Assembly (NCBI GenBank): GCA_029880855.1 | Contig: JAOUNS010000005.1 | Span: 145,130 to 209,129, forward strand | Source: Gammaproteobacteria bacterium | Lineage (GTDB): Bacteria; Pseudomonadota; Gammaproteobacteria; UBA6429; Thiohalophilaceae | DNA length: 64,000 nucleotides | Reading direction: 5' to 3' | Part shown: piece by piece, positions 27,464 to 48,156 of the stretch | Layout of the letters: every line of letters starts with the position of its first letter | Numbering within the stretch: the first letter of the stretch is position 1 | Translations under genes and position numbers: made by a program | The notes under the pieces: generated by a model | The model's database searches: none | What the model was told of the DNA's origin: nothing | The model's input: only the letters and a program-made list of their open reading frames with translations

Positions 27464-28660
27464 TCAGCCTTTTACACAAACAACCTGACGCAGGGTATGC
27501 ACAACTTCAACCAGATCACTCTGATTTGCCATCACCACGTCAATGTCCTTGTAGGCACCGGGGATCTCATCGATAACACCGGCATCCTTGCGACATTCGA
27601 TACCGGCGGTCTGTTGCTCCAGATCGGCGGTGCTGTAGTGACGCTTGGCCTTGCCACGACTCATACGACGACCTGCACCATGCGAGCATGAGCAGAATGA
27701 ATCCGGGTTGCCTTTACCACGGACAATGTAGGATTTGGCCCCCATGCTGCCCGGGATAATACCCAGTTCATCCACACCGGCACGAATCGCACCCTTGCGC
27801 GTGATGTAGACGTTTTCACCGAAATGATTTTCGATGGCCACGTAGTTGTGGTGACAGTTGATCGCTTCTTTGGTCACGCCAAACTTTGGCAGTTCCTTTT
27901 TCAGCGCATCAACAATCAGACGCATCATTTCACGACGGTTATCCATCGCATAATCCTGCGCCCAGTGCACCGCAGTCACATAGTCATCAAAATGTTCCGC
28001 ACCTTCAGTAAAGTAGGCCAGATCTTTATCAGGCAGGTTGTGGATATGACGTTCCATATCCTTCTGCGCCTGACGAATAAAGTACTGACCAATCACATTA
28101 CCGATACCACGGCTGCCTGAATGCAACATGATCCAGACATCATCATTTTCATCCAGACAGATTTCGATGAAGTGGTTACCACCACCCAGCGTACCCAGCT
28201 GGCGTATCCAGGTCTGGTAGGGCTTCTTCTGCATCTTCAGAATCTTCGGATGCTTCTGCAAGACCTCATCCAGCCCCACACCCAGTGCGCGAATGGTTGA
28301 ATCACGCGCCTTGTCGGTCTTGTGCATATCAAAGCCCACCGGAATGGCGGCTTCGATGGCTGAACGCACACGCTTCAGGTTATCAGGCAAATCTTTCGCC
28401 TTGATAGACAGACGCATGGCATTCATACCACAACCGATATCCACACCAACCGCAGCCGGAATGATCGCACCTTTGCAGGGAATCACTGAACCCACCGTCG
28501 CACCCTTGCCATAGTGCACATCGGGCATGGCCGCGATATGGCTATGCACAAAGGGCAGTTGTGCAATGTTGTACAACTGCTGGTAGGCCTCATGCTCAAT
28601 GTCATCGGTGTAGATCTTGACCGGCACCTTGCCTTTGGTAATTAACTTTTTAACAGGCAT
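27464..28660 (-). CDS. rtcB: RNA-splicing ligase RtcB (3'-phosphate/5'-OH RNA ligase)
   Basis: 398 aa. GGNHFIEI motif, multiple His/Cys metal ligands (HSGSRGIGN, CHHNY), and HGAGR near the C-terminus. No rtcA or rtcR is adjacent. Confidence 0.9.
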   Translation of the reverse strand: MPVKKLITKGKVPVKIYTDDIEHEAYQQLYNIAQLPFVHSHIAAMPDVHYGKGATVGSVIPCKGAIIPAAVGVDIGCGMNAMRLSIKAKDLPDNLKRVRSAIEAAIPVGFDMHKTDKARDSTIRALGVGLDEVLQKHPKILKMQKKPYQTWIRQLGTLGGGNHFIEICLDENDDVWIMLHSGSRGIGNVIGQYFIRQAQKDMERHIHNLPDKDLAYFTEGAEHFDDYVTAVHWAQDYAMDNRREMMRLIVDALKKELPKFGVTKEAINCHHNYVAIENHFGENVYITRKGAIRAGVDELGIIPGSMGAKSYIVRGKGNPDSFCSCSHGAGRRMSRGKAKRHYSTADLEQQTAGIECRKDAGVIDEIPGAYKDIDVVMANQSDLVEVVHTLRQVVCVKG

Positions 28661-32921: not shown

Positions 32922-32997
32922 CGTGATAGGCTGGTCTGAAGAACGGGGATTGAACCCGTAACCCACTGATTATGAGTCAGTTGCTCTCCCAATTGAG
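32922..32997 (-). tRNA. tRNA-Met/Ile2 (anticodon CAU), canonical D-loop (GG) and T-loop (UUCAAUC); G1 opposite G72
   Basis: Cloverleaf folded by hand. Acceptor tcttcag, T stem ACGGG/CCCGT, anticodon stem ACTGA/TCAGT, loop CTCATAA. Confidence 0.7.
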
Positions 32998-33164
32998 CTA
33001 TCTTCACTGGTGCAATTGATCACTCATCGCTTTGTATACACATTGCTATCCCGTCAGGTGAGCGTCTGTGCACAGGTCAGGCATACAGAACCTGAACCGC
33101 TAAGCTAAATCAATGTATCAAGAGCTTCTGAACGATGTGTTAATTCAACACAAAGTTACAATTC

Positions 33165-33191
33165 TTTATGTTTAACGTGTGGCCAGCTTAA
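33165..33191. repeat. Perfect 11-bp-stem palindrome GTGTGGCCAGC-ttaa-GCTGGCCACAC
   Basis: Read directly from the sequence. Lies downstream of the HNH gene between two tRNAs. Confidence 0.5.
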
Positions 33192-33220
33192 GCTGGCCAC
33201 ACGAGATACAAAGGATCACC

Positions 33221-33291
33221 TCCTGTTACTGTAGGGTGGGCATCGCCCACCAATCCAACCTCAACCAAGTTTTTTTTTCGGTGGGCAATGC
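33221..33291. repeat. Compound inverted repeat GTAGGGTGGGCAT...ATGCCCACCCTAC enclosing two GGTGGGC/GCCCACC hairpins and a T9 run
   Basis: The outer 13-nt arms are exact reverse complements, and the inner hairpins are GGTGGGCATCGCCCACC and GGTGGGCAATGCCCACC. Confidence 0.5.
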
Positions 33292-33310
33292 CCACCCTAC
33301 ATTCATGTTG

Positions 33311-33874
33311 TTAAAACATATCACGACGTTCTTTAGTGCACTGCGCCTTCAGAAACTCCATCTGGTCTGCCTGGATATGGCGATTTCGTAAAATCAGCCA
33401 TTCCGCATGGTTCGGTGTATAGGGAACCGCATGCAAACGCATATTGATTTCCTTTAACAACCGATCTGCCTTGCGTTGATTACATGCCTTACAGGCCGTA
33501 ATTACATTGGTCCAGACATCCTTGCCACCGCGTGACATGGGAACAATATGATCCCGAGTCAGGTGTTGGTTTCCCAGTGTGGTCAAGCAATACATACAGG
33601 TATGACCATCACGACGAAACAACTCACGATTTGTCAGTGGTGGTGTCACCGCATACTTTGAGTAACCTTGTATCCCCTTGGCGGCAATAATTGGATGCAC
33701 ATCCATATAGGAACGGGTATTACTCAGACGGTTCGTCCCACCATAAAATCGCATGGTCTGTTCACCAAGTGTCCATGCCACCTGATCACGGGCATACAGC
33801 AATACGGCTTCCTGCCAGTCGATCCAGCCTGTGGCCTGTCCACTTTGACTCAAACGCAAAATCATGTGAGTCAT
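33311..33874 (-). CDS. HNH endonuclease (homing-endonuclease-like) embedded in the tRNA array
   Basis: 187 aa. HNH motif CMYC...HLTRDHIVPMSRGG...NVITACKACNQRKADR. AAGGAG SD 8 nt upstream. Confidence 0.8.
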   Translation of the reverse strand: MTHMILRLSQSGQATGWIDWQEAVLLYARDQVAWTLGEQTMRFYGGTNRLSNTRSYMDVHPIIAAKGIQGYSKYAVTPPLTNRELFRRDGHTCMYCLTTLGNQHLTRDHIVPMSRGGKDVWTNVITACKACNQRKADRLLKEINMRLHAVPYTPNHAEWLILRNRHIQADQMEFLKAQCTKERRDMF

Positions 33875-33938
33875 TTCGTCTACTCCTTTGTTGTATCGTT
33901 AATAGTTAGCCCATTAACAATTGGGAAGTGTTTAAAAA

Positions 33939-34028
33939 TGGCGGAGAGAGTGAGATTCGAACTCACGGCAGGTTTTAACCTACTCCTCGTTAGCAATGAG
34001 GTGCCTTAAGCCACTCGGCCATCTCTCC
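33939..34028 (-). tRNA. tRNA-Ser (anticodon GCU), type II long variable arm
   Basis: CCA encoded. T stem GTGAG/CTCAC with loop UUCGAAU. Long variable arm. Anticodon loop TTGCTAA. Confidence 0.7.
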
Positions 34029-34032
34029 ATAA

Positions 34033-34196
34033 AAGGTGCGTTCGGTCAGGGTATTACGCACATCCATGTGCTCCACCCTTCGGGCCAGCCTCCGGCTGTT
34101 CAAAATTGCTCCCGGCAATTTTGTCGAACTGACACTCCATAAAGGACCCAAATTTTAAGTTTGGTGCGTTTGCCAATTACGCCACGAACGCATGAA
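34033..34196. ncRNA. Structured repeat element, copy A (hairpins GCACA-tcca-TGTGC, CCC-ttcg-GGG, CAGCC-tcc-GGCTG, CAAAATTGC-tcccg-GCAATTTTG; ends complementary)
   Basis: An approximately 90-nt core is shared with copies B and C, with compensatory base changes in two stems. No ORF. Confidence 0.5.
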
Positions 34197-34198
34197 TT

Positions 34199-34271
34199 TG
34201 GCAGGGGATCCTGGATTTGAACCAGAAATGCAAGTGTCAAAGACTTGTGTGTTACCGTTACACTAATCCCC
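34199..34271 (-). tRNA. tRNA-Gln (anticodon UUG)
   Basis: CCA encoded. Acceptor aggggat/atcccct. T stem with G-U. Anticodon stem CAAGT/ACTTG with loop CUUUGAC. Confidence 0.7.
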
Positions 34272-34281
34272 TTTTATAAAT

Positions 34282-34358
34282 TGGTGCGCTCCCGGGGAGT
34301 CGAACCCCGAAAAACCTGGGTCTAAGCCAGGTACGTATGCCAGTTCCGTCAGAAGCGC
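34282..34358 (-). tRNA. tRNA with Leu anticodon UAG but type-I (5-nt variable loop) architecture, discriminator A73
   Basis: T stem CGGGG/CCCCG with loop UUCGACU. Anticodon stem CCTGG/CCAGG with loop CUUAGAC. Variable loop UUUUU. Confidence 0.55.
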
Positions 34359-34365
34359 ATTAAAT

Positions 34366-34441
34366 TGGTCGTGCCCCCTGGACTTGCACCAGGCACTCCG
34401 AGCTTATGAGGCTCGTGCTTTTCTTGCTAAGCTAGAGCACG
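34366..34441 (-). tRNA. tRNA-Met/Ile2 (CAU), non-canonical class: T-loop UGCAAGU, D-loop AGCAAGAA lacking G18G19
   Basis: D stem GCTT/AAGC, anticodon stem CGAGC/GCTCG with loop CTCATAA, T stem CCTGG/CCAGG, all folded by hand. Confidence 0.6.
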
Positions 34442-34495
34442 TTGGGTCGCTACGCACAACTCTGTGTTCTCGCGACATAAGTACATCCATAAAAA

Positions 34496-34571
34496 TGGAC
34501 ACGCGGGTCAGTGTTGCACCGACATAGTCCTGGTTTGCAATCAGGTACATTTCTAACTCTGCCACCGCGTG
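34496..34571 (-). tRNA. tRNA-Cys (GCA), non-canonical class: T-loop UGCAACA
   Basis: Acceptor cacgcgg/ccgcgtg perfect. Anticodon loop TTGCAAA. The D-arm is poorly canonical. Confidence 0.5.
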
Positions 34572-34592
34572 ATGATTTGGCACCCCGGGCAG

Positions 34593-34624
34593 GAATCGAC
34601 AATTTTGTCTGGAACAAAATTGGT
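34593..34624. repeat. Short hairpin repeat copy 1: GAATCGACAATTTTGtctggaaCAAAATTGG
   Basis: 8-bp stem CAATTTTG/CAAAATTG. A near-identical copy lies at 36843-36874. The stem equals the element A-C hairpin in the opposite orientation. Confidence 0.5.
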
Positions 34625-34740
34625 CATCGCGATAGCGATGCCTGTAAGGCACAGGTCATGGATGACCTGTGACAGCCCACACCAATTGTTTTGGAGGCAA
34701 TTGTTCTGCCATTAAACTACCGAGGCATTAACGAGATTAA
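34624..34740. other. Structured non-tRNA spacer (hairpins CATCGC-gata-GCGATG, CCTGT-aaggc-ACAGG, GGTCATGGATGACC)
   Basis: No T-loop and no ORF. Shares the CATGGATG-core hairpin with 34954-34971 and 36899-36918. Confidence 0.35.
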
Positions 34741-34745
34741 ATATT

Positions 34746-34821
34746 TGGTACACCCGGTAAGATTTGAACTTACATCATTCCGGTTAAAAGCCGGAAGCTT
34801 TACCAATTAAGCGACAGGTGC
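34746..34821 (-). tRNA. tRNA-Lys (UUU), canonical
   Basis: T stem GTAAG/CTTAC with loop UUCAAAU. Anticodon stem TCCGG/CCGGA with loop CUUUUAA. D-loop AATTGGTA. Confidence 0.75.
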
Positions 34822-34830
34822 ATTAAAAAT

Positions 34831-34906
34831 TGGACTCCCTGACCTGATTCGAACAGGTATCTCAAGCTTCGTAAACTAGTATTCTGATCCATTGAACTAC
34901 AGGGAG
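34831..34906 (-). tRNA. tRNA-like gene with perfect acceptor and T-arm (ACCTG-ATTCGAA-CAGGT) but unfoldable anticodon arm; possible pseudo-tRNA
   Basis: Acceptor ctccctg/cagggag pairs perfectly. No 5-bp anticodon stem can be drawn around ...ACTAGTTTACGAAGCTT... Confidence 0.35.
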
Positions 34907-34914
34907 TTGGTTGG

Positions 34915-35070
34915 TCGCGAAGGGTGAACGGCGGGATAGGAGCCGTGAACGCCAGGTCATGGATGACCTGGCTGGACTTTGTAATAACTACATGGATGTA
35001 GTTATTACAAAGTGAACCTTCACCTTCCTGGGTAAAAGCCAGGTGTGCTATCTATTACACCAGCGACCGA
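34915..35070. other. Structured spacer containing a perfect 17-bp hairpin (CTTTGTAATAACTACAT-gg-ATGTAGTTATTACAAAG), a CATGGATG hairpin and complementary ends
   Basis: Read from the sequence. The ends GGTCGCG...CAGCGACC pair like an acceptor stem, but there is no T-arm. Confidence 0.4.
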
Positions 35071-35080
35071 AAAATTAAAT

Positions 35081-35156
35081 TGGCACGCCTGGCAGGAGTC
35101 GAACCCACAACCGTTCGGGTAGAAACCGAATGCTCTTCCGATTAAGCTACAGACGT
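35081..35156 (-). tRNA. tRNA-Arg (UCU)
   Basis: T-loop UUCGACU. Anticodon stem TTCGG/CCGAA with loop TTTCTAC. D-loop AATCGGAA. Confidence 0.65.
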
Positions 35157-35171
35157 GTAGTGTCGTGCTGT

Positions 35172-35247
35172 TGGCGCACCTGTGAGGACTTCAACCTCAA
35201 CCTTCCATCTTCGGACGATGGTGCTCTTGCAATTAAGCTACAGGCAC
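35172..35247 (-). tRNA. tRNA-Arg (CCG), non-canonical: T-loop UUGAAGU (G56) with D-loop AAUUGCAA (C19)
   Basis: T stem TGAGG/CCTCA. Anticodon stem CCATC/GATGG with loop GUCCGAA. Confidence 0.6.
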
Positions 35248-35255
35248 ATTTAATT

Positions 35256-35354
35256 TGGCGGAGAGACAGAGATTCGAACTCTGACACCTGCTCCCGCAGG
35301 CCCTCTGTTTTCAAGACAGTCGCCGCTACCCAGACTCTTTCGGCTTACCTCTCC
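35256..35354 (-). tRNA. tRNA-Ser (UGA), type II; D-arm region unusually long
   Basis: T stem CAGAG/CTCTG with loop UUCGAAU. Variable-arm hairpin CCTGC-tccc-GCAGG. Anticodon loop CUUGAAA. Confidence 0.55.
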
Positions 35355-35360
35355 ATAATT

Positions 35361-35435
35361 TGGTCATCGCCATCGGAATTGCACCGATACCTTCTGTATG
35401 TAACACAGATGTTCTGCTGTTAAACTAGGCGACAT
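35361..35435 (-). tRNA. tRNA-Val (UAC), non-canonical class: T-loop UGCAAUU, D-loop AACAGCA
   Basis: T stem ATCGG/CCGAT. Anticodon stem TCTGT/ACAGA with loop GUUACAU. Confidence 0.6.
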
Positions 35436-35442
35436 TTATTTC

Positions 35443-35619
35443 TTAAGCATAGGGCCGAATCAAATCCAGCAATTCATCCAGTTTTGGGTTATTCCTGTTT
35501 TCGATCCAGGCATTGGCCAATATCCAGCGAAAATTTGCCGGTAAAGGCGTTATCCGGTTGTCAGGAATACGTAGCTGACGACACAAGCGTTGAAATTTGT
35601 TTAACTCGATATTATTCAT
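35443..35619 (-). CDS. Small ORF (58 aa, MNNIELNKFQRLCRQLRIPDNRITPLPANFRWILANAWIENRNNPKLDELLDLIRPYA) inside the tRNA array
   Basis: Perfect AGGAGG SD 6 nt upstream of the ATG. It fills the spacer between tRNA-Val and tRNA-His, and is below the 60-aa cutoff of the ORF track. Confidence 0.45.
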   Translation of the reverse strand: MNNIELNKFQRLCRQLRIPDNRITPLPANFRWILANAWIENRNNPKLDELLDLIRPYA

Positions 35620-35651
35620 AAACTACCTCCTGTAAATTAGGCCAAAAAGAT

Positions 35652-35728
35652 TGGGTTGGCTGAACGGACTCGAACCGATATCGTCATGATTCACATTCAT
35701 GGGCTTTACCAATTAAGCTACAACCAAC
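35652..35728 (-). tRNA. tRNA-His (GUG) with encoded G-1 and discriminator C73
   Basis: Anticodon stem CATGA/TCATG with loop AUGUGAA. D-loop AATTGGTA. T-loop UUCGAGU. The extra 5' G pairs with C73, the His identity element. Confidence 0.75.
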
Positions 35729-35737
35729 ATTGAAAAT

Positions 35738-35815
35738 TGGTCCGTACAAAAGGATTCGAACCCTTGACCTCCTGGCCCCAAACCAGGCGCTCTTCGCAGA
35801 CTGAGCTATGCACGG
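35738..35815 (-). tRNA. tRNA-Pro (UGG)
   Basis: T-loop UUCGAAU. Anticodon stem CCTGG/CCAGG with loop UUUGGGG. 10-nt D-loop without GG. Confidence 0.65.
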
Positions 35816-35821
35816 ATAATT

Positions 35822-35897
35822 TGGTACCTCGATCTGGACTCGAACCAGAAACGCCCGATTATCGGTCGAGTGTTTTACCAATTAAACTATCAAGGCT
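35822..35897 (-). tRNA. tRNA-Ile (GAU), C33 in anticodon loop
   Basis: T stem TCTGG/CCAGA with loop UUCGAGU. Anticodon loop CCGAUAA. D-loop AATTGGTA. Confidence 0.6.
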
Positions 35898-35900
35898 TGG

Positions 35901-36047
35901 GGAACCGGACGGGATTACTTCGTACATCCCTGTACTTCGCCCTGCGAACCAGCCTTCGGCTGTTCAAAATCGCTCCTGGCGATTTTGTCAAACCCGCACA
36001 GACCAGATTGAAGGTCTGGTTGCTTTGACCAATTTGCATACCGGTTC
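35901..36047. ncRNA. Structured repeat element, copy B
   Basis: Same core as copy A, with compensatory changes (GTACA-tccc-TGTAC; CAAAATCGC-tcctg-GCGATTTTG). Ends GGAACCGG/CCGGTTC are complementary. Confidence 0.5.
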
Positions 36048-36053
36048 AATAAA

Positions 36054-36129
36054 TGGCGGGACCGAAGAGGCTTGAACTCTCACCACCCTGATCGACAATC
36101 AGGTGCTCTACCAATTAAGCTACGACCCC
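36054..36129 (-). tRNA. tRNA-Asp (GUC), canonical
   Basis: T-loop UUCAAGC. Anticodon stem CCTGA/TCAGG with loop UUGUCGA. D-loop AATTGGTA. Confidence 0.7.
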
Positions 36130-36178
36130 ATGGTGAATTGGCGAATAGGTTTGTTAAATCACACTCAAAGAATGTTAT

Positions 36179-36322
36179 TTAACAACCCCACTCTCTTTTC
36201 AGTTTCTGTTTATCAGTCCGACGTTTGGACCGTTCAGATTTTTCATGCACACCACCTTTTCGCATCAGTGGATGGTCATGCAAAGGGTTGCGTGGTTTTG
36301 ACACGCGATCTTTTGCTTTCAT
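36179..36322 (-). CDS. Small basic ORF (about 47 aa, MKAKDRVSKPRNPLHDHPLMRKGGVHEKSERSKRRTDKQKLKREWGC)
   Basis: GGAG lies 7-8 nt upstream of the ATG. It sits in a 230-nt tRNA-free spacer and could equally be non-coding. Confidence 0.25.
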   Translation of the reverse strand: MKAKDRVSKPRNPLHDHPLMRKGGVHEKSERSKRRTDKQKLKREWGC

Positions 36323-36360
36323 CTTACTTCTCCGTGGTTAATTAAAGTTGCAAAAAATTG

Positions 36361-36655
36361 GTGGACGGGACGGGGCTATTTCGCACATCCATGTGCTACA
36401 CCCTTCGGGCCAGCCTTCGGCTGTTCAAAATTGCTCCCGGCGATTTTGTCGAACCCGCATCAAATGAGTACCCGGGCATTACTCCAGGCATGGAACATCT
36501 TGGGAAACGCGCACCAGTTGAGACCCGTTACCATAAGCCGCGAACCTGCATCCGTAAACCCGTGGATATTCTCAGTTAACCCATTCAGGATATTACTCCC
36601 CACCATAAGCTAACCGTTTTTTGGTGAGCATTTCCGTTTATGCTACCTGCCCATA
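36361..36655. ncRNA. Structured repeat element, copy C (long form, about 295 nt)
   Basis: The 5' 100 nt are nearly identical to the copy A core. The 3' 190 nt are unique. Confidence 0.5.
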
Positions 36656-36659
36656 AAAT

Positions 36660-36735
36660 TGGTGGAGCTGAGAAGATTTGCACTTCCAACATCCTGCTTG
36701 CAAAACAGGCACTCTACTAGTTGAGTTACAGCCCC
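36660..36735 (-). tRNA. tRNA-Ala (UGC) with G3-U70 identity pair; non-canonical class (T-loop UGCAAAU, D-loop AACUAGUA)
   Basis: Acceptor ggggctg/cagctcc gives G3 opposite U70. Anticodon loop UUUGCAA. Confidence 0.7.
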
Positions 36736-36742
36736 TTAAAAT

Positions 36743-36830
36743 TGGTGGATTGCCCAGGATTCGAACCTGGATACGTCAGAGACTCCTGATTTACAGTCAG
36801 GTGGTGCCGCCCCGTCGCACCGCGCAATCC
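36743..36830 (-). tRNA. tRNA-Tyr (GUA), type II
   Basis: Acceptor ggattgc/gcaatcc perfect. T stem CCAGG/CCTGG with loop UUCGAAU. Anticodon stem CCTGA/TCAGG with loop CUGUAAA. 11-nt D-loop. Confidence 0.7.
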
Positions 36831-36842
36831 AAATAAACTATG

Positions 36843-36874
36843 CGAATCGACAATTTTGCCTGGAGCAAAATTGG
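36843..36874. repeat. Short hairpin repeat copy 2: GAATCGACAATTTTGcctggagCAAAATTGG
   Basis: Near-identical to 34593-34624. Confidence 0.5.
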
Positions 36875-37340
36875 ACGCACGCAATGCGCCCGAAGGGCAA
36901 AGGCCATGGATGGCCTTTGTCAACTTACAAGCCAGAGGCGACGAGGTTACAACTCGTGGGGCTCACCATCTGCCCAACACATCCATGAAAATCAAAGGCT
37001 GAGACTACACCTTTAGCGCAACACCTTTTGTCGGATTACCACCCTCCGTGCGAGGAGAGTGTTGCCGCGTATCCACTTAAACCAACCCGAAGGTTGCGCT
37101 TAAGTAATATTGCATGGCTGCTTTTTTTAACGTGTAGCGATTCACGTGTACCGTAGCGTCTACTCGATATACGTCTTACCGTGTACCTTGCGGGCACTAA
37201 AGAGGAGCAACCTCACCGTGCAGTTGTATATCAATATCCTTTGGCTTGCGGCCGCCGGATCACCTGCCTTCTCTCGCGAGGGCAGGATTAAGCCATTTTC
37301 GACTCTACAGCAGGACGCGTCTTTGCGTTTTTACCTTACG

Positions 37341-37411
37341 GTGAAATCTCGGGAATCGAACCCGAACCAAAACAGGCTAAGTGTTTCGCTCTACCATTGA
37401 GCTACATTTCA
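37341..37411 (-). tRNA. Second type-I tRNA with Leu anticodon UAG; CCA not encoded; G7 opposite G66
   Basis: Canonical D-arm TAGCTCAATGGTAGAGC. Anticodon stem AAACA/TGTTT with loop CUUAGCC. T stem TCGGG/CCCGA with loop UUCGAUU. Confidence 0.5.
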
Positions 37412-37875
37412 AACCTATCAGGATGTGCGCGTCCTGGTGGTTTCATACTGCTTTAACAGTACAAAATGCCACACACCCAATGTCTTTCCACTGTCGTGTA
37501 CTTAACCATGTTTCGAGATATTGTCCCTGATTTTGACACCAGAGCCTTTACCTCTAACATTGCACAGCGCCCTTGTTTACGAGACTCGGACTAACCGCAC
37601 TACTGCTTGCTTCTCGTTGTTCACAACGTTGCCCCCGGTGTTGGCTGGCGACCAACGTCCCATTGCCCCCTTTTCAGGTACGCAATGGTCATACCGGCGT
37701 GCTTACCAACTATCTCCAGCCGACGCTGAAGACTTTGGAAGCGCAGCTTGTCTGAATTGACCTGTCCGTAAAGACAGGTGAAGGGTTATAGGAGACCACT
37801 TCTTTTTCGATATTGCTATCGATTATCGTTGTCAGACCAACACACTTTTTATGTCCGTGCCGGACAATTCAAAAT

Positions 37876-37950
37876 TGGCTCCCGGGGCTGGACTTGAACC
37901 AGCATACAACTGCTTAACAGGCAGGCCACCTACCAATGGTGCACCCAGGA
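37876..37950 (-). tRNA. tRNA-Asn (GUU)
   Basis: T stem GCTGG/CCAGC with loop UUCAAGU. Anticodon loop CUGUUAA. D-loop ATTGGTA. Confidence 0.65.
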
Positions 37951-37956
37951 ATTAAA

Positions 37957-38084
37957 TTTGCTGCAACGGGATCCTTGCTTTGGACTCCTGTCCTCTCGCG
38001 ACATTCGTACATCCCTGTACATCGTTCCGACCTATCGACATCCTGTTCTTATAACAGGCGCTCTACCAACTGAGCTACCGTTAC
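37957..38084 (-). other. Degenerate or interrupted tRNA-like gene: canonical 5' half (D-arm TAGCTCAGTTGGTAGAGC; anticodon stem CCTGT/ACAGG with loop UAUAAGA, UAA-like) but an about 50-nt insert carrying the element hairpin GTACA-tccc-TGTAC where the variable/T region should be
   Basis: The acceptor halves gtaacgg / gcaacgg pair with one G-U. The T-arm is not canonical. Confidence 0.3.
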
Positions 38085-38090
38085 ATTTCG

Positions 38091-38246
38091 TCATACACAT
38101 TGTTATACGGGCCGGGTTTCCCCACCCCGGCTCCCGAAAGTTGGTTCCGCTTTACTTACCCTCGCCTTGTCAGGCAGTAACGAGTAACAAAACAACAGGT
38201 CCGGAACCCTGCCAGGTGCTGCCACACCTCCGTATAACAATGTGTA
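38091..38246. mobile_element. MITE-like or structured element bounded by perfect 18-bp inverted repeats ATACACATTGTTATACGG / CCGTATAACAATGTGTAT
   Basis: The terminal inverted repeats are read directly from the sequence. The interior carries nested hairpins GCCGGG/CCCGGC and GGTTCCG/CGGAACC. Confidence 0.4.
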
Positions 38247-38254
38247 TAGAAAAT

Positions 38255-38328
38255 TGGAGCGAGTACAGGGATTCAAACCCTGACCAGGAGGTTGGAAGCC
38301 TCGCATGCTATCGTTACACCATACTCGC
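38255..38328 (-). tRNA. tRNA-Gly (UCC), T-loop UUUGAAU, D-loop without GG
   Basis: Acceptor gcgagta/tactcgc perfect. T stem CAGGG/CCCTG. Anticodon loop CUUCCAA. Confidence 0.6.
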
Positions 38329-41286: not shown

Positions 41287-42066
41287 ATGCCCATCCCCAA
41301 ATTTCTTTTGTTACTATTAATCAGTACAACCTTATTTCTGTCTGCTACCACCGTTGTTGCTGCGGACAGGTGGACCTTCTCTACCGGCGTGGATTACAGC
41401 CAGGGTGACTATGGCGCAACAATAGATACAGAAATCTGGTACATCCCGTTTGCAGTCAAGCTGGAACAGGCCGATATGGTTTACAAGCTCACCGTACCAA
41501 TGCTGGCCATGTCGGGTCCAGGCAATGTAATCGGTGTTGATGCAGTGCCCGGCACCGGCAACCCCAATGAACGACATTCAGAAGCCGGCATGGGTGATAC
41601 GGTGGTGGCCGTGTCCAAAGCATTATTACCTTATCAGCCGGGCAAGCTGTTTCTGGAACTGACCGGCAAGATCAAGCTTCCTACGGCAGATGAGACACGG
41701 GGACTGGGCACCGGAAAAATTGACTACGCCATTCAGATCGATCCTTTTTACGGTATTCGCAAGACCAGTCTTTTTGCCACGCTGGGTTACAAGCTGCAAG
41801 GCGATCCGCCAGACATTACATATCGCAATATTTTGTATTATTCGCTGGGCATCGACTATGCGTTTACAGAGCAGATCGGCGCAGGTCTGATTTATGATTA
41901 TCGACAGGCCGGTACCGCCGGTGGAATTGCGCCGGAGGAACTGACCGTTTATCTACATCGAAAACTCGATAATTCCAGGAAACTGCTGATCTATCTGCTA
42001 CATGGCTTGAGTGACGGCAGCCCGGATATGGGACTGGGAATTAATGTGAGTTACATCCTTAAGTAA
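41287..42066 (+). CDS. Putative outer-membrane beta-barrel protein (MetA-pathway/transporter-like family)
   Basis: Signal peptide, alternating beta-strand pattern and C-terminal aromatic-rich strands. Confidence 0.5.
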   Translation: MPIPKFLLLLLISTTLFLSATTVVAADRWTFSTGVDYSQGDYGATIDTEIWYIPFAVKLEQADMVYKLTVPMLAMSGPGNVIGVDAVPGTGNPNERHSEAGMGDTVVAVSKALLPYQPGKLFLELTGKIKLPTADETRGLGTGKIDYAIQIDPFYGIRKTSLFATLGYKLQGDPPDITYRNILYYSLGIDYAFTEQIGAGLIYDYRQAGTAGGIAPEELTVYLHRKLDNSRKLLIYLLHGLSDGSPDMGLGINVSYILK

Positions 42067-42958
42067 AACTCCCGGCAATTCGGCTTATTTCACGCAATGC
42101 CTTCAGGGCCGCATCCTGATCCACAACACAACTGGAAAGATCACCGTAGTACTGCTCAAGACATTGTAATAACAAGGTTTGTATTTTTCCTTCATCCGGT
42201 TTGTACGGCAAGTGGCAGGACGTATAAAGGCTTTCCAGTGACTTTTCCTTATCGGCAAAATGCTGTTCTATCCTGTCAATCGACCAATCTCCATCACGTA
42301 TGGACTTCAGTTGCTCACGGTTCCTTTCCAGATCGATATCACCTTCTGTCATTATCTGTTCCACCTCATCCAGCAACCGTACAACGTGGTAGGCAAATTT
42401 AACATCATAACCAAATTCTTCGATCATACCCTTGCGCTTGCCCTGCGGTTGTTTTGTTTTTAGCTTGCGCATTTGTGCAAATGCATAACCTTTAAACTTG
42501 TGCCATGCCCCTTTGTGCAGAAACAGTCGGCGACTTTCCCGAACCATATCGCCAATATCGGTGGCGAACAGTACGCATCTCTGTGGCACGAACAAACTGT
42601 CGATCATATTTGGATTGTTTTCCATGCACAACCGGAAATACTTGATGATGGAATAGATCGCCAAATCATATTCTCGCCCTTTGCCTCCCAGGGCGGTATT
42701 GTCCATGATATGGTGCATCTGAAATTGTTCGAAACGCGGTCCAGGCGTGGAGAATCCTTCAATCTCTCCACGCAAATGGGGAAAGACATAATCCCGTAGC
42801 GGAATACAAAACCCGTACACATCCATATCAGACACATCGGTACTGACGCCATAGGCCATGGAGCCCATGATCACTTCATATTGCATCCCGCCGGATAAAT
42901 AGGGTGGTGCCGATTTAATCAACCCCTTCTTATGCAGTTCAGCGACAATGCTTGCCAT
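42059..42958 (-). CDS. Pol-beta-superfamily nucleotidyltransferase, PF10127-like (divergent paralog)
   Basis: GSMAYGVSTDVSDMDVYGF fits G[GS]x9-13DxD. Last gene of a 9-gene minus-strand operon. Confidence 0.6.
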   Translation of the reverse strand: MASIVAELHKKGLIKSAPPYLSGGMQYEVIMGSMAYGVSTDVSDMDVYGFCIPLRDYVFPHLRGEIEGFSTPGPRFEQFQMHHIMDNTALGGKGREYDLAIYSIIKYFRLCMENNPNMIDSLFVPQRCVLFATDIGDMVRESRRLFLHKGAWHKFKGYAFAQMRKLKTKQPQGKRKGMIEEFGYDVKFAYHVVRLLDEVEQIMTEGDIDLERNREQLKSIRDGDWSIDRIEQHFADKEKSLESLYTSCHLPYKPDEGKIQTLLLQCLEQYYGDLSSCVVDQDAALKALREISRIAGSFT

Positions 42959-42970
42959 GCCCTAACTCCT

Positions 42971-43765
42971 CTACCGCGTAGTACGAATAATATGACGAAA
43001 TGCTTCATTGAACTCCGCCTTGTCAAAGGATGGTTTGTTTTCCGGAAAGTTGTTTTTTATAAACACCAGTAAATCACCGATCCGTCTGTCGACGACAGAA
43101 AACAGGGTTTTATACTGCTCTCGCTCCAATATATCCGTTTCATTGCTGCGCGATTTTAACTGCATCAGTTCATCCACAGCGCCTCTGAAATCTCCCTTTG
43201 GATAAAACCTTGCCAGTATCACCGGAAATTCTACCGGGGGGATGGTCTTTTCACTTATTATCCACTCACAACATAACAAAGCACGCAACACATAGAAATA
43301 CCGCTTTAATTTTATCTGCCCCACGCCCGCCAGATTAGCCCAGCCCCGTTTGGCCATGCCCAAATAGTGGTAAACACCATTACCCGGCCGGTAGCTTTTT
43401 CTTGCCAGTTCCCGTAACGTAATCGTGACATTATCAACCTGTTGATAAACAATGGGGGAGTGCAACCATTCAAGCAAAGGGCCATTTGATTTGCTCAACA
43501 GTCCCATCGCCTTGCGCAAGTCCCAACCACTAATATCGAGCAAATCATTAATGGGTTGTTCAATAACATCCCGTTCCTCATATAGAGATAAATACCAGTC
43601 CGGATCATGGCAATAGATAAATCGGACATCATAATCACTATCCGGCGATGGGAAACCCCAGGCACGGGAACCGGATTCACAGGCATATAACACCGTCACA
43701 TGTTGTGCAGCATGCTGGTGTAGCAAGGCCGATAATATATCCGTTTTTACTGTCTCATCTATCAT
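42971..43765 (-). CDS. Pol-beta-superfamily nucleotidyltransferase, PF10127-like ('predicted nucleotidyltransferase')
   Basis: YACESGSRAWGFPSPDSDYDVRFIY. Start taken at MIDETVK (43765) to avoid a 115-nt overlap with the NADAR gene. Confidence 0.6.
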   Translation of the reverse strand: MIDETVKTDILSALLHQHAAQHVTVLYACESGSRAWGFPSPDSDYDVRFIYCHDPDWYLSLYEERDVIEQPINDLLDISGWDLRKAMGLLSKSNGPLLEWLHSPIVYQQVDNVTITLRELARKSYRPGNGVYHYLGMAKRGWANLAGVGQIKLKRYFYVLRALLCCEWIISEKTIPPVEFPVILARFYPKGDFRGAVDELMQLKSRSNETDILEREQYKTLFSVVDRRIGDLLVFIKNNFPENKPSFDKAEFNEAFRHIIRTTR

Positions 43766-43773
43766 TGTCAAAC

Positions 43774-44337
43774 TCACTTCCGCAAACCTTGCCGGACTGC
43801 CATTAACGCAAACCCCAACAGGTTCAAGCCAGGCCACTTGGCCGGATTGTTTGCGTTGCCGTGTGTCTTTTCCAGTCCGATACCCCAAATTTTATCCACC
43901 GGACTGGCTTCCACCAAAACCCGGTCGCCGGTTTTCAACAAAAAATCACCGAGTTCAGGATTTTGGTGGAATTTTTCAATATTCCCCCGCAGCACAATAT
44001 CAAAACGATGCGACAGCCATTTCTGTTCGGTATAGCCACAGACCGTTCTGCCAAGTTTTTTTGCATCACCCGGATGTGACGCCGCGAGAATCTTCTTTTG
44101 TGCTACCTGATCGCTAAACAGTCGAGCCTTTTCCGCCATCATATAATGCTCGGCAGTGGGGTAACTTGTCCCATTAATCACAAATTCAGCCGGAAACCAC
44201 TGGCTCAGACAGCTTTGATCAACAACCCCCGACTGTTTTGGTGTGTGCCCCCAAAAGAACAGGTATTTGACCCTGTTGCCTTGTTCAAGGTAATCAAGCA
44301 AATCATCTTTTGATGAGAATAAGGACTGCATCGTCAT
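43774..44337 (-). CDS. NADAR (YbiA/DUF1768) family protein
   Basis: 187 aa with WGxG (KIWGIGL) and EASP motifs. Confidence 0.65.
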   Translation of the reverse strand: MTMQSLFSSKDDLLDYLEQGNRVKYLFFWGHTPKQSGVVDQSCLSQWFPAEFVINGTSYPTAEHYMMAEKARLFSDQVAQKKILAASHPGDAKKLGRTVCGYTEQKWLSHRFDIVLRGNIEKFHQNPELGDFLLKTGDRVLVEASPVDKIWGIGLEKTHGNANNPAKWPGLNLLGFALMAVRQGLRK

Positions 44338-45043: not shown

Positions 45044-45907
45044 TCAGAGTACATTTTCTTTCACCCTCGCAAGACAACTCACCACCGACAAATCCTGTTT
45101 GCTGCCAAACACGCCGGCAGGTATGACAGCCAGACCATTTTCCTCGAATTGTTTGTATCCCTGCGGAACAACGGAAAGATAACCAACCTCCGGTTTTTTC
45201 CAGCCCAACGCCACTTCCGTCAATTGTGGTGTCAGATCCTGCCATGCCTTGTCGAACCATTGTTGCAGCAATTGACCATGTGATTCCACCATCAGGCTTG
45301 CCATGGTTTTCTCAAAACCGGGCAATGGACTGCGACTCACCGCCCAACCCAGCTCGCCGCTTGATAACAGCAACTTTGCCACGCTGCCAAGAAAAATCAC
45401 CTGCTCATGGTCAAGGCGTTGCATTACCGTGTATGCGGAAAAATTATAAACTGTATCCACAATCAGCCGGCGCTCCGGGTCGGCATCCAGCCACTTTAGC
45501 AAATCGACTATCTGATTCTCATGTAAATATGATCCGCTCGGCATCATGGGGTCGGCAATGACCGCAACACACCTTGACTCAATCGGCAATTCAAAACGCT
45601 GCATGCCCAGCGTGCGATAGGTCCGCAACTCCATGTCATCAGGCAACAAATGAAAATAGACCGGGTATATATCCTCCGGTAATACGGCTGTATATTTCAT
45701 TCGGGAAAACATGAAATACAGCTCCTGTAACAAGGCCCTGACTCCCGTTGAGCGCTTCACAAACCAGCCGGGTTCAGCAAAGGTATACCGGTCTGCCACA
45801 CTGATTGCCTGAAGAGCCTTTTTCAGTGGCACAGGATCGAGATCATCCAGTGGTGACAAACCGGCAGGTCGATAGTCACGGTAAAATTGAAACTGCCTAT
45901 AATCCAT
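45044..45907 (-). CDS. Hypothetical protein (287 aa)
   Basis: ORF in operon. No motif recognised. Confidence 0.45.
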   Translation of the reverse strand: MDYRQFQFYRDYRPAGLSPLDDLDPVPLKKALQAISVADRYTFAEPGWFVKRSTGVRALLQELYFMFSRMKYTAVLPEDIYPVYFHLLPDDMELRTYRTLGMQRFELPIESRCVAVIADPMMPSGSYLHENQIVDLLKWLDADPERRLIVDTVYNFSAYTVMQRLDHEQVIFLGSVAKLLLSSGELGWAVSRSPLPGFEKTMASLMVESHGQLLQQWFDKAWQDLTPQLTEVALGWKKPEVGYLSVVPQGYKQFEENGLAVIPAGVFGSKQDLSVVSCLARVKENVL

Positions 45908-47240
45908 AACAGTATCCTGCTGTGTTATTCTTCAGCACTTCACTGTCCGATACTTCAAGGCTGGCATAACATCGGCCATCCGCCATCAAATTCCAGCTGC
46001 GACACATGCCGTTTGCCAGCTCCCATGAGACCGATGGCTCGGTATACGCCGCCACTTGCATGGTTCTGCCGTTTTTGACATAGCGGTATACCGGGCTGCC
46101 CCATGGCAAGCGCATCACCTCTTCCCAACCTTGCTCGGCGGCATAATTGATCAGCATGGCCAACGGTACCTGTTGTGCATAACTCCAGTCATTAGAGGCC
46201 TGATCATAGAAAACGGACTCTGAACTGCTCGCCACGTATAACTCTTTAAAACAGACCTGCTCAATCTCCTGTTGCATGGCCCAATCAAGATAAGCCTCGA
46301 TTTCTGCCGGGCTGTCTATTCCCCCCTTCTGTAACAGACAAATCACTCTCAGGGTCATCCCCGCCCCCTGTTGTCGATTCCCTCTGTATGCCTGCAGCAA
46401 ATTATCAAAGGCCACATCCAGCCCCATAATAGCGGCGGCACGTTGCGCCGCGTAGTGGTGACGTGAAACAGCCAGCACGCTCAACCCTGAATCAGACAAT
46501 GCTGACAATCGTGCCTTCGGGTTCGGGTGATTGGCGATGAAATATCCGTTGGTAATCATCACCACCTTGTCGAAACGACGGCGACATAATTTGATCAATG
46601 CATGCAAGCGCTCTGCCGGCAACAATCCCGGCTCACCGCCGCCGGTAATCACGGCGCGGGTTGCACCGGCCAGTGCCGCCTGATGCAACACCTCGTTCGT
46701 CCGTGCCATAGAGAGATGTTTCTGCTTGTGGATGTGTGAGATGGATGCTTTTGAAAAACAGAACGGGCACTGTGCCTGACAACCATTGGCAATGGGCAAA
46801 ACAGAAATCGTACGTGGTGCCAACTCATCAAAGCCGGCCACAGACTGCTGCATAACGGCATAAGCCTCCGCCATGGCCTCTTCCACACGAACAGGCTTTA
46901 ACGCATTATCCACCGGATAGTACAAACCATTGACCCGGATCTGCTCCGACTCAATATATTTTCCCAGCCCGGTACCGGTCAAATCATTCTCTTTCAGGCG
47001 ATCCGTCTCAATAAGAGTTTCCAGTACAAGCAGGCGATTACCCGGATAGCCCAGTTTCTGCAACAGGCCGGCGGCCTTGTTTATCCCGATCGGCAACTGT
47101 GCATGATCAACCAGAAAAAACACACCCGGATAACTGCTTTGGCTGATCCCGGCCTTGTCATAGATCCGGCTATATTTGTCATAGGCCAATAACAGGTTGC
47201 TCAGTACTGTGACGTGATATTGTTTAATCAACATCTTCAC
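45897..47240 (-). CDS. Radical SAM domain protein
   Basis: CxxxCxxC (NGCQAQCPFC) and a GGGEPGLLP glycine-rich SAM motif. Confidence 0.7.
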   Translation of the reverse strand: MKMLIKQYHVTVLSNLLLAYDKYSRIYDKAGISQSSYPGVFFLVDHAQLPIGINKAAGLLQKLGYPGNRLLVLETLIETDRLKENDLTGTGLGKYIESEQIRVNGLYYPVDNALKPVRVEEAMAEAYAVMQQSVAGFDELAPRTISVLPIANGCQAQCPFCFSKASISHIHKQKHLSMARTNEVLHQAALAGATRAVITGGGEPGLLPAERLHALIKLCRRRFDKVVMITNGYFIANHPNPKARLSALSDSGLSVLAVSRHHYAAQRAAAIMGLDVAFDNLLQAYRGNRQQGAGMTLRVICLLQKGGIDSPAEIEAYLDWAMQQEIEQVCFKELYVASSSESVFYDQASNDWSYAQQVPLAMLINYAAEQGWEEVMRLPWGSPVYRYVKNGRTMQVAAYTEPSVSWELANGMCRSWNLMADGRCYASLEVSDSEVLKNNTAGYCYGL

Positions 47241-48156
47241 ACTCCTTGATATTCGCTATTTCCAGTAACTTCCCGGCCTGTTCGGTTATCTCCTTCTCCA
47301 TATACAGAGCCGCTCTCCACTCCGCCGGTATTCCCTCATAACCATAAAATGCACCGGCAATCTGCCCGCAGACAGCCGCCGTGGTGTCGGCATCGTCTCC
47401 CACATTCACCGTCATGAGGATGGCGTCACGGAAATTATTCGTGTGGGCAAAACACCATAAGGCGGTTTCCAGGGTATTGATAACATAACCACTGCCGGAT
47501 AACTGGTTATATCCCTTGTCCAGATATTCACCCCGGCCAATTCTCTCCACTTTTTCCGCCGGTGAGTTGTAGCCATGTCCAGTGAGGATAGTGGTCTTGT
47601 CCTTGCCCTGCATGGCCAGGGCCAGTTGCACGGCAAACAGACGACAACTTTCCACTGCTTCATCACAACCATGGGTGGTGCGTGAACTATCCGCAGCGAA
47701 CTGCAACAATGCATCACGGTCATGTTGGTAAGTGATCGCTACCGGCGCCAGACGCATGACTGAACCATTACCGGCACTGCGCGGGTCGGTCGATCCGGCG
47801 AACGGATCACCGGTAACACTGAACCGGTTCAGGGCATCGGCGGTGGTGCCGCCGATATCGAAACAACGCCCGGTTGAACTCATATAACCTTCTTTATACC
47901 AGCGACAGTAACGCTGCATCTGATCGGTGGCATCGAATCCGCTGCAGGCAAGCAAGCTGTCGGCCAAACAGAGTGCCATGGAAGTATCATCGGTCCATTT
48001 GCCTTTCGCCAGATTAAACGGACCACCACCGGTCATATCGGTAACAGGCGGAAAGGAACCGCGCATTTTAAATTCCACGGTGGTTCCCACTGCATCACCC
48101 GCCGCCAGACCGACCAGCATGCCTTTTGCTTTATCAAGTAACAATTTATTCATCAC
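47224..48156 (-). CDS. ADP-ribosylglycohydrolase (DraG/ARH) family protein
   Basis: N-terminal GMLVGLAAGDAVG... and TDDTSMALCLADSL are family hallmarks. Confidence 0.8.
   Translation of the reverse strand: MMNKLLLDKAKGMLVGLAAGDAVGTTVEFKMRGSFPPVTDMTGGGPFNLAKGKWTDDTSMALCLADSLLACSGFDATDQMQRYCRWYKEGYMSSTGRCFDIGGTTADALNRFSVTGDPFAGSTDPRSAGNGSVMRLAPVAITYQHDRDALLQFAADSSRTTHGCDEAVESCRLFAVQLALAMQGKDKTTILTGHGYNSPAEKVERIGRGEYLDKGYNQLSGSGYVINTLETALWCFAHTNNFRDAILMTVNVGDDADTTAAVCGQIAGAFYGYEGIPAEWRAALYMEKEITEQAGKLLEIANIKECEDVD

Follow-up and report, generated by a model that had tools for sequence, protein, structure and literature searches.

A probable leucine isoacceptor without the long variable arm and a probable GOLLD linker tRNA-like domain share the anticodon UAG in a bacterial tRNA array

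The long variable arm is required by SerRS, and a minimal E. coli tRNALeu lacking both arms is still charged by E. coli LeuRS, with an A73C change abolishing leucylation (PMC9976931). A natural type I tRNALeu(CAA) has been described for S. coelicolor (Wang et al., NAR 2019, PMC6614811). With its leucine anticodon and a variable loop of 5 nt, this tRNA occurs alongside long-arm tRNA-Leu, and the only LeuRS of that organism leucylates it; its charging hinges on a lineage-specific (i.e. Streptomyces-specific) feature of LeuRS and A73 is not a determinant. Animal mitochondrial tRNA-Leu is also class I, and mitochondrial charging proceeds through A73 and A14 without a long arm (PMC9976931).

Long tRNA arrays (i.e. 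L-arrays; Santamaria-Gomez et al., PMC8421152) are horizontally acquired, contain more than 20 co-oriented tRNA genes and have homing-endonuclease (i.e. HNH) and rtcB genes in their neighbourhood. Published GOLLD RNAs are large RNAs located in tRNA arrays, with a linker joining a variable 5′ domain to a conserved 3′ one (PMC12286853). Cryo-EM of GOLLD RNAs has resolved 10–14-mer nanocages with the linker facing the inside (Kretsch et al., Nature 2025, PMC12286853), and linker tRNAs were drawn as covalently linked cargo within the 14-mer cage. A tRNA-Phe is reported for a Mycolicibacterium GOLLD (cited in PMC12990946). The presence of a tRNA within a GOLLD linker is an already reported arrangement, and the function of GOLLD has been open since 2009.

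The window analysed here (i.e. the whole stretch of 64,000 nucleotides) is a fragment of a bacterial chromosome, probably proteobacterial, and its DNA is also present on a metagenome contig of 87 kb. Genes for a CreC-like sensor kinase and for CreD form one flank, and genes for NrtR and NadA the other. The region between these flanks (25158–48156, about 25.1–48.2 kb) is an island with a lower GC content, in which genes for RtcB, a PcfJ-like protein, an SPFH protein and an HNH endonuclease are followed by a tRNA array and then by HTH, DUF4395 and GNAT genes. The array (32932–38328) consists of 20 tRNAs called by ARAGORN, a tRNA-Ser(UGA) and several interrupted tRNA genes, all on the minus strand. 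The HNH homing-endonuclease gene (33311–33874, minus strand), with PHROG and Pfam HNH matches, is inside the array, and the RtcB RNA ligase gene (27464–28660, minus strand; Pfam PF01139, E 1.5e-132; PHROG 1075) is about 4 kb from the array in the same island. Genes for RNA repair and ADP-ribose functions are numerous around the array: besides RtcB, the island encodes two RlaP proteins (42059–42958 and 42971–43888), NADAR (43774–44337), a radical-SAM protein (45897–47240) and an ADP-ribosylglycohydrolase (47224–48156). Island proteins of 700, 324, 287 and 134 aa had no Pfam or PHROG match. With more than 20 co-oriented, closely spaced and supernumerary tRNA genes in an island of distinct composition, accompanied by HNH and RNA-processing genes, the array resembles the published L-arrays in orientation, size, horizontal acquisition and HNH and rtcB neighbourhood (PMC8421152) and differs from them in also having a GOLLD RNA and small insertion elements. 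Searches for relatives of the whole array returned only single-tRNA matches in GenBank phages (megablast) and in plasmids (blastn).

Two tRNAs of this array, tRNA1 (34282–34358, minus strand) and tRNA2 (37341–37411, minus strand), had been singled out in the original prediction as short-variable-loop tRNAs with the leucine anticodon UAG. ARAGORN and Rfam agreed on the cloverleaf, the anticodon and the loops of both. ARAGORN called tRNA-Leu(tag) at 34282–34358 (minus strand, 77 nt, CCA encoded) and at 37340–37411 (minus strand, 72 nt, without CCA), and the Rfam tRNA model RF00005 scored 52.0 bits for tRNA1 and 54.4 bits for tRNA2 (gathering score of 29; E values of about 1e-9 to 1e-10). An alternative fold with a different anticodon would have refuted the original prediction by its own terms; another fold or anticodon was proposed by neither program for either tRNA, and every descriptive detail (i.e. 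A73 and the UUUUU variable loop of tRNA1, CUUAG in both anticodon loops and no CCA on tRNA2) was confirmed by direct reading. The treatment of the two tRNAs as a pair of one kind did not hold, as sequence alignment found their bodies to be unrelated, tRNA2 is located inside a match to the GOLLD model RF02032 and the counterparts of tRNA2 carry unrelated anticodons. It is likely that the two tRNAs differ in nature, with tRNA1 being a functional armless leucine isoacceptor and tRNA2 a tRNA-shaped domain of a GOLLD linker and not an independent gene.

The tRNA1 gene is a free-standing gene of the array, identified by ARAGORN, Rfam, family alignment and covariation as a class I tRNA-Leu(UAG) with A73 and an encoded CCA. 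Its sequence reads GCGCUUC UG ACG GAACUGGCAUA CGU A CCUGG CUUAGAC CCAGG UUUUU, followed by CGGGG UUCGACU CCCCG GGAGCGC A CCA. Direct reading gave a perfect acceptor stem of 7 bp, a D stem of 3 bp, a D loop of 11 nt, the anticodon loop CUUAGAC, the 5-nt variable loop UUUUU in place of the long variable arm of class II, and the T loop UUCGACU. The discriminator A73 is shared by 38 of 38 family members. All elbow contacts (i.e. U8-A14, A15-U48, G18G19, A20a and U54-A58) are there and are invariant in the family alignment, in which the search probe partly predetermines the D-loop positions. The anticodon UAG is a leucine anticodon (i.e. NAG or NAA) and pair 3-70 is G3-C70, not G3.U70. Position 37 is A in tRNA1, and both A37 and G37 are found in the family; bacterial tRNA-Leu reading CUN codons usually has G37.

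Relatives of tRNA1 were found in phages. A sensitive BLAST search of GenBank phages with the 77-nt tRNA1 matched genes annotated as tRNA-Leu of 74–77 nt, with 73–81% identity over 75–100% of the gene, in phages whose hosts are Mesorhizobium, Aeromonas, Providencia, Proteus, Streptomyces and Mycobacterium; dozens of records have a 74–77 nt tRNA-Leu. Examples are gene 114 of Mycobacterium phage Crossroads and gene 141 of Streptomyces phage Jay2Jay (both tag), t14 of Aeromonas phage 4_4572 and the tRNA-Leu (caa) of Mesorhizobium phage Cp1R7A-A1. The anticodons assigned to the matches by ARAGORN were UAG, CAA or UAA. Stems diverge, and the D arm (UGACGGAACUGGCAUACGU or close variants), the 5-nt variable loop, the UUCGACU T loop and A73 are common to tRNA1 and the phage genes, which reside in genomes of virulent or temperate phages whereas tRNA1 is in a bacterial chromosomal island. 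The claim that all bacterial tRNA-Leu have the long arm was too strong in view of these dozens of phage genes and of the charged type I tRNALeu(CAA) of S. coelicolor (PMC6614811). Animal mitochondrial tRNA-Leu has no evolutionary link to this phage family and, unlike tRNA1, works with a dedicated LeuRS in an organelle.

An exact 19-nt probe for the D arm (TGACGGAACTGGCATACGT) produced 51 matches at 49 IMG/VR loci. Every one of the 52 ARAGORN tRNAs with the D arm of tRNA1 had a leucine anticodon (UAG in 25, CAA in 24, CAG in two and GAG in one), and 50 of these 52 were class I; the other two (i.e. L011 and L033) had a long-arm body. Arrays with an armless tRNA-Leu usually contain long-arm Leu tRNAs as well, mostly with UAA. 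An alignment of 38 distinct family members had 98.9% of stem cells paired, double (i.e. compensatory) changes at 19 of 20 pairs and a covariation score of 0.757 as compared to 0.19 for column shuffles and ≤0.19 for slid partners. Invariant positions were U8, A14, A15, G18, G19, U48, U54, U55, C56, A58 and A73, with the invariance of A14, A15, G18 and G19 being partly by construction because most rows were fetched with the D arm of tRNA1 itself. The probe does not cover U48, A73 or the T loop; independent of it, though fewer, are the phage genes found by BLAST and one locus from a Pseudomonadales MAG (i.e. L060). Membership of tRNA1 in this covarying family, the restriction of the family to leucine anticodons and the conservation of the determinants are direct observations.

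The same D arm was present on the two long-arm bodies, so that the best reading of the armless form is a tRNA-Leu whose variable arm was lost, i.e. a putative derivative of canonical type II tRNA-Leu. The family appears to circulate among tRNA clusters of phages and bacterial tRNA arrays of horizontal origin, and E. coli genomes yielded no match to tRNA1. No description of armless phage tRNA-Leu, nor a charging test, was found in the literature searched, and the size and constraint of the family are apparently undescribed there. This large and strongly constrained family is a natural test case for the rule of long-arm-independent charging by bacterial LeuRS. When phage or array sequences are annotated, a short-arm tRNA with a leucine anticodon should be taken neither as a sign of recoding nor as an artefact.

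The determinants that are invariant in the tRNA1 family are those reported for E. coli LeuRS (PMC9976931). Because the long arm is dispensable for bacterial LeuRS, tRNA1 most likely represents a genuine Leu isoacceptor that serves the rare CUA codon, rather than a reassigned tRNA or a pseudogene. The suggestion in the original prediction that the tRNAs could be Leu isoacceptors is supported for tRNA1, whose family always has leucine anticodons and keeps the LeuRS determinants, and probably does not apply to tRNA2 (i.e. C73, C37 and no CCA). The likeness recorded between tRNA1 and the S. coelicolor type I tRNALeu is one of features, the latter being an actinomycete chromosomal housekeeping gene with the anticodon CAA. 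We infer that tRNA1 is expressed, charged and used in decoding. It is most likely co-transcribed with its neighbours, because spacers are 7–9 nt and CCA is encoded, and would then be processed as they are. The host LeuRS would charge tRNA1, which would read CUA and probably other CUN codons. The frequency of CUA in neighbouring genes, which the original prediction had suggested examining, identified this codon as the rarest Leu codon, at 0.7% in the flanking genes (8 of 1141 Leu codons) and 3.0% in those of the island (14 of 474), i.e. four times commoner in the island than in the flanks. The likely role of tRNA1 would be that usual for array and phage tRNAs, namely to supply a codon that is poorly read by the host.

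A different picture emerged for tRNA2, a UAG tRNA-shaped module recognised by ARAGORN, by the Rfam tRNA model and by its position in a GOLLD alignment. Its sequence is UGAAAUG UA GCUC AAUGGUA GAGC G AAACA CUUAGCC UGUUU UGGU, followed by UCGGG UUCGAUU CCCGA GAUUUCA C. The D arm (UAGCUCAAUGGUAGAGC) is unrelated by alignment to that of tRNA-Leu; its loop, AAUGGUA, is of a generic 7-nt kind that lacks 20a and Leu-type features. The anticodon loop is CUUAGCC (i.e. C37), the variable loop has 4 nt (UGGU), position 73 is C and no CCA is encoded, making tRNA2 the only one of the 20 array tRNAs without it. The acceptor stem (UGAAAUG/GAUUUCA) has a G7.G66 mismatch and one G-C pair. U8, A14, A15-U48, G18G19 and a standard T loop are kept. 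Of the features expected of a LeuRS substrate, tRNA2 has neither A73 nor a usable 3′ end, and its D loop is not of the Leu type with A20a.

The GOLLD model RF02032 matched 36996–37481 (minus strand) over model positions 1–416 with 154.8 bits and an E value of 2e-42, a score only 4.8 bits above the gathering score of 150. This part contains a 5′ hairpin, a linker with tRNA2 and a conserved 3′ domain, and in the Rfam alignment tRNA2 is inserted into this linker, which is unstructured and joins the 5′ hairpin to the pseudoknotted 3′ domain. Upstream, about 370 nt are free of ORFs and align in a three-way alignment with the 5′ regions of two other GOLLDs (i.e. L060 and L058); this region (37482–37850, minus strand) is probably the GOLLD 5′ domain, with a 5′ end placed to about ±15 nt. 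Because these 370 nt align with two other GOLLDs, the whole RNA is estimated at about 855 nt, similar to the 833 nt of the env-38 GOLLD solved by cryo-EM (PMC12286853). The GOLLD is positioned between the tRNA-Asn and tRNA-Tyr genes of the array, and follows tRNA-Asn(GUU) both in the window and in L060. The window GOLLD shares with published GOLLDs its domain order, its location in a tRNA array and the tRNA in its linker (PMC12286853); it differs from them in its location on a bacterial chromosome and in having UAG on a class I body with C73 and C37.

From its linker position, C73, C37 and a D loop without Leu-type features, tRNA2 is best described as a linker tRNA(-like) domain of the GOLLD and is probably not a normal Leu decoder. 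Its label of 'Leu' is the output of an anticodon look-up only, and selection for decoding most likely does not act on UAG at this position. Within the GOLLD particle, the domain probably functions as a tRNA, or a mimic of one, that is kept tethered. Alternatively, tRNA2 may be released only after extra processing and CCA addition; it is still a good generic tRNA (54 bits) and could be cut by RNase P and RNase Z, CCA-tailed and used.

Linker tRNAs were then compared across GOLLD loci. A pattern search retrieved other GOLLDs, including L058 (IMG/VR, 186 bits) and L060 (the Pseudomonadales MAG, 190 bits). Among the GOLLD loci examined in full, four had a tRNA at the same linker site, each with a different anticodon, namely UAG in the window, GCU in L058, CCU in L060 and UCU in L184. 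No linker tRNA was called in L059, a confirmed GOLLD, or in L061, for which no GOLLD match reached the gathering score of Rfam. The four linker tRNAs have generic D and T arms in common and differ in their anticodon arms and acceptor sequences. All four have 5–6 of the 7 acceptor pairs, 1–2 G-C pairs and no encoded CCA. In contrast, among free-standing tRNAs of the same loci CCA is encoded in 56 of 59, 7 of 7 acceptor pairs are formed in 55 of 59 and the mean number of G-C pairs is 4.2–4.8, a difference that rests on four embedded examples. This systematic contrast between linker tRNAs and their neighbours was not found in the literature searched. The absence of CCA, the weak acceptor stem and the non-conserved anticodon of linker tRNAs as compared to their free neighbours are a concrete, testable observation relevant to the question of whether tRNAs are stored, hidden or presented by the cage.

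Other features of these loci were also recorded. The linker tRNA of L058 (6291–6363, minus strand) has the serine anticodon GCU on a 73-nt class I body, a mismatch between anticodon and body like that of the window, with the anticodon of a class II family on a class I body. The L184 viral contig, which has a GOLLD and a tRNA array, contains a permuted tmRNA at 2259–2440, and another viral contig with a GOLLD and a tRNA array (i.e. L182) contains a group I intron near the array at 2092–2294. CCA is encoded in every free-standing tRNA of the window array, L058 and L184. In the window array CCA is usually followed by AUUU or AAUU, which may be a conserved processing signal of a polycistronic precursor, and spacers are often only 5–10 nt.

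Several other explanations of the two UAG tRNAs were considered. Both could be ordinary, redundant tRNA-Leu(UAG) genes for the rare CUA codon, with tRNA2 merely located between two GOLLD halves. The good generic tRNA scores of both, the rarity of CUA among Leu codons and the canonical contacts of tRNA2 (i.e. U8, A14, A15-U48, G18G19 and a standard T loop) agree with this explanation, which is nevertheless unlikely given that tRNA2 has C73, C37, G7.G66 and one G-C acceptor pair, is alone among the 20 array tRNAs in lacking CCA, has a body unrelated to the Leu family and is replaced by tRNAs with GCU, CCU or UCU at the same GOLLD position elsewhere; the loss of leucylation with A73C in the minimal E. 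coli tRNALeu (PMC9976931) also counts against it. An altered identity of one or both tRNAs, i.e. charging with an amino acid other than leucine and recoding of CUA or CUN, had been raised in the original prediction. A short loop with a leucine anticodon is indeed the expected look of an anticodon-mutated non-Leu tRNA, and the closest phage matches of tRNA2 are tRNA-Gly and tRNA-Asn bodies. The body of tRNA1, however, is a tRNA-Leu body whose D arm is also found on long-arm Leu tRNAs, and anticodons in its family shift only among leucine anticodons, with LeuRS determinants being kept, so that reassignment lacks support for tRNA1. AlaRS would not charge tRNA1 because the 3-70 pair is G3-C70 and not G3.U70, nor would SerRS because the long arm is absent, and most other synthetases read the anticodon (PMC9976931). 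No pointer to recoding was noticed among the genes of the window, and we regard reassignment of either tRNA as extremely improbable.

Both tRNAs, above all the one tethered in the GOLLD, could instead be decoys or sponges for tRNA-targeting nucleases or toxins, with the armless Leu design evading enzymes that recognise the long arm of class II tRNAs. The RNA-repair genes of the island (i.e. RtcB, two RlaP, NADAR and ADP-ribosylglycohydrolase) would fit such a role, a sponge function has been proposed for array tRNAs (PMC8421152), evasion of anticodon nucleases by phage tRNAs is documented (PMC10264068) and the anticodon differences among linker tRNAs could mirror a diversity of nucleases. Decoy activity is pure inference and is considered quite unlikely; the strict Leu anticodons and kept LeuRS determinants argue that tRNA1 is charged and used. 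Decay of both genes into pseudogenes in a cryptic, horizontally acquired array is consistent with the interruption of several neighbouring tRNA genes, the often poor expression of L-arrays (PMC8421152) and the non-canonical features of tRNA2; it is very unlikely in view of the perfect cloverleaf of tRNA1, the strong covariation of its family and the recurrence of a linker tRNA in four GOLLDs and, as reported, in mycobacterial GOLLDs, which argues for retention. A more far-reaching proposal, which we consider doubtful, is that GOLLD linker tRNAs form a class of non-decoding mimics that trap a tRNA-binding factor, combined with shedding of the long arm to escape host factors. A weak A/U-rich acceptor stem, the lack of CCA and a free-drifting anticodon would be the marks of this class; tethering 10–14-fold in a nanocage would recruit or trap, for example, an anticodon nuclease, the ribosome or an enzyme of tRNA modification or processing; and loss of the long arm from tRNA-Leu would let phages and arrays evade host factors by which class II tRNAs are recognised. 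If true, the locus would be part of a tRNA-centred toolkit of attack and defence together with RtcB, RlaP and NADAR. The preferred reading remains that of an armless leucine isoacceptor (tRNA1) and a GOLLD linker domain (tRNA2).

The interrupted tRNA genes of the array were examined by in-silico removal of 72–90 nt from the T arm, after which ARAGORN recovered a long-arm tRNA-Leu(UAA), a tRNA-Trp(CCA), a tRNA-Glu(UUC) and a second tRNA-Lys(UUU). Three of the array insertions are copies of one element, which starts with GACAAAAUYGCCRGGAGCRAUUUUGAAC and continues with three further hairpins. The element has a length of about 75–80 nt and consists of the hairpin CAAAAUYG..CRAUUUUG, a variable hairpin, a GCCC..GGGC hairpin and a hairpin with a CAUGGAUG-type loop before the end ..GAGUAAU. 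A covariance model built from metagenome copies (i.e. model R1) identified five copies in the window, three in sense orientation to the tRNA genes (34035–34131, 35899–35995 and 36360–36456, minus strand) and two antisense (36843–36938 and 34592–34690, plus strand). The first hairpin of the element adjoins TCGA of the T-loop-coding palindrome TTCGAA in five of five copies. The genes interrupted by the element are tRNA-Leu(UAA), tRNA-Glu(UUC), tRNA-Trp(CCA) and two tRNA-like stretches. The type II tRNA-Leu(UAA) gene (34030–34200, minus strand), the only long-arm Leu tRNA of the array, has a T-loop insertion of about 72 nt that matches model R1 with 87 bits; the tRNA-Leu(taa) of 82–87 nt was called by ARAGORN only after in-silico excision.

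The 28-nt pattern of the element was found at ≥120 (i.e. at least 120) metagenome loci, and IMG/VR had none by exact pattern. An alignment of 73 copies supported a structure of four to five helices with compensatory changes, 96.8% pairing and a covariation of 0.279 as compared to 0.097 for shuffles. Rfam (E<1) returned no known RNA family or self-cleaving ribozyme for the insertions. Among the matches listed, the metagenomic sites were mostly T-loop-like partial copies of tRNA 3′ ends, the D loops of type II tRNAs, group II introns, stretches downstream of 5S rRNA and a small number of unassigned recurrent sites. An intron in the T loop, removed from the RNA and sealed by the nearby RtcB, was largely rejected as two of the R1 copies are antisense and complete tRNAs were present at only 2 of the 96 metagenomic sites listed. 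Insertion in both orientations points to a mobile element acting at the DNA level rather than an intron, possibly a non-autonomous, hairpin-ended one. No description of T-loop-targeting elements was found in the literature searched; this widespread and unnamed structured element inserting into T-loop-coding DNA may be the most novel item of the window.

Further irregular tRNA genes were observed in the array. The second tRNA-Lys(UUU) (34900–35075, minus strand) has a T-arm insert of about 90 nt with long perfect hairpins, CAUCCAUG loops and a flanking TTCAC repeat. A tRNA-like stretch upstream of tRNA-Asn (37950–38110, minus strand) has the odd anticodon loop UAUAAGA and an inserted block (37988–38014), which is repeated at 34462–34488, upstream of tRNA-Met. 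A stretch of 300 nt (36355–36660, minus strand) has a tRNA-like start (GGGCAGG UA GCAU...) and ends with a T arm, an acceptor 3′ strand and CCA; with possibly two insertions, it may represent the Phe or Thr gene that the array lacks. Rescue to a tRNA by a single deletion was negative for 36355–36660, 37950–38110 and 36835–36990. The type II tRNA-Ser(UGA) (35260–35354, minus strand), with the anticodon loop CUUGAAA, G73 and CCA, was missed by ARAGORN and obtained only a weak tRNA-Sec-like match of 28 bits in Rfam.

Two small ORFs with Shine-Dalgarno-like leaders are located between tRNA genes, one of 47 aa at 36179–36322 (minus strand) and one of 58 aa at 35443–35619 (minus strand). The 47-aa ORF, for which a resemblance to ArfA was considered, had no Pfam match and this identity was dropped. 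Neither ORF belongs to a Pfam family, and both are also gene calls on a public metagenome contig with the same DNA.
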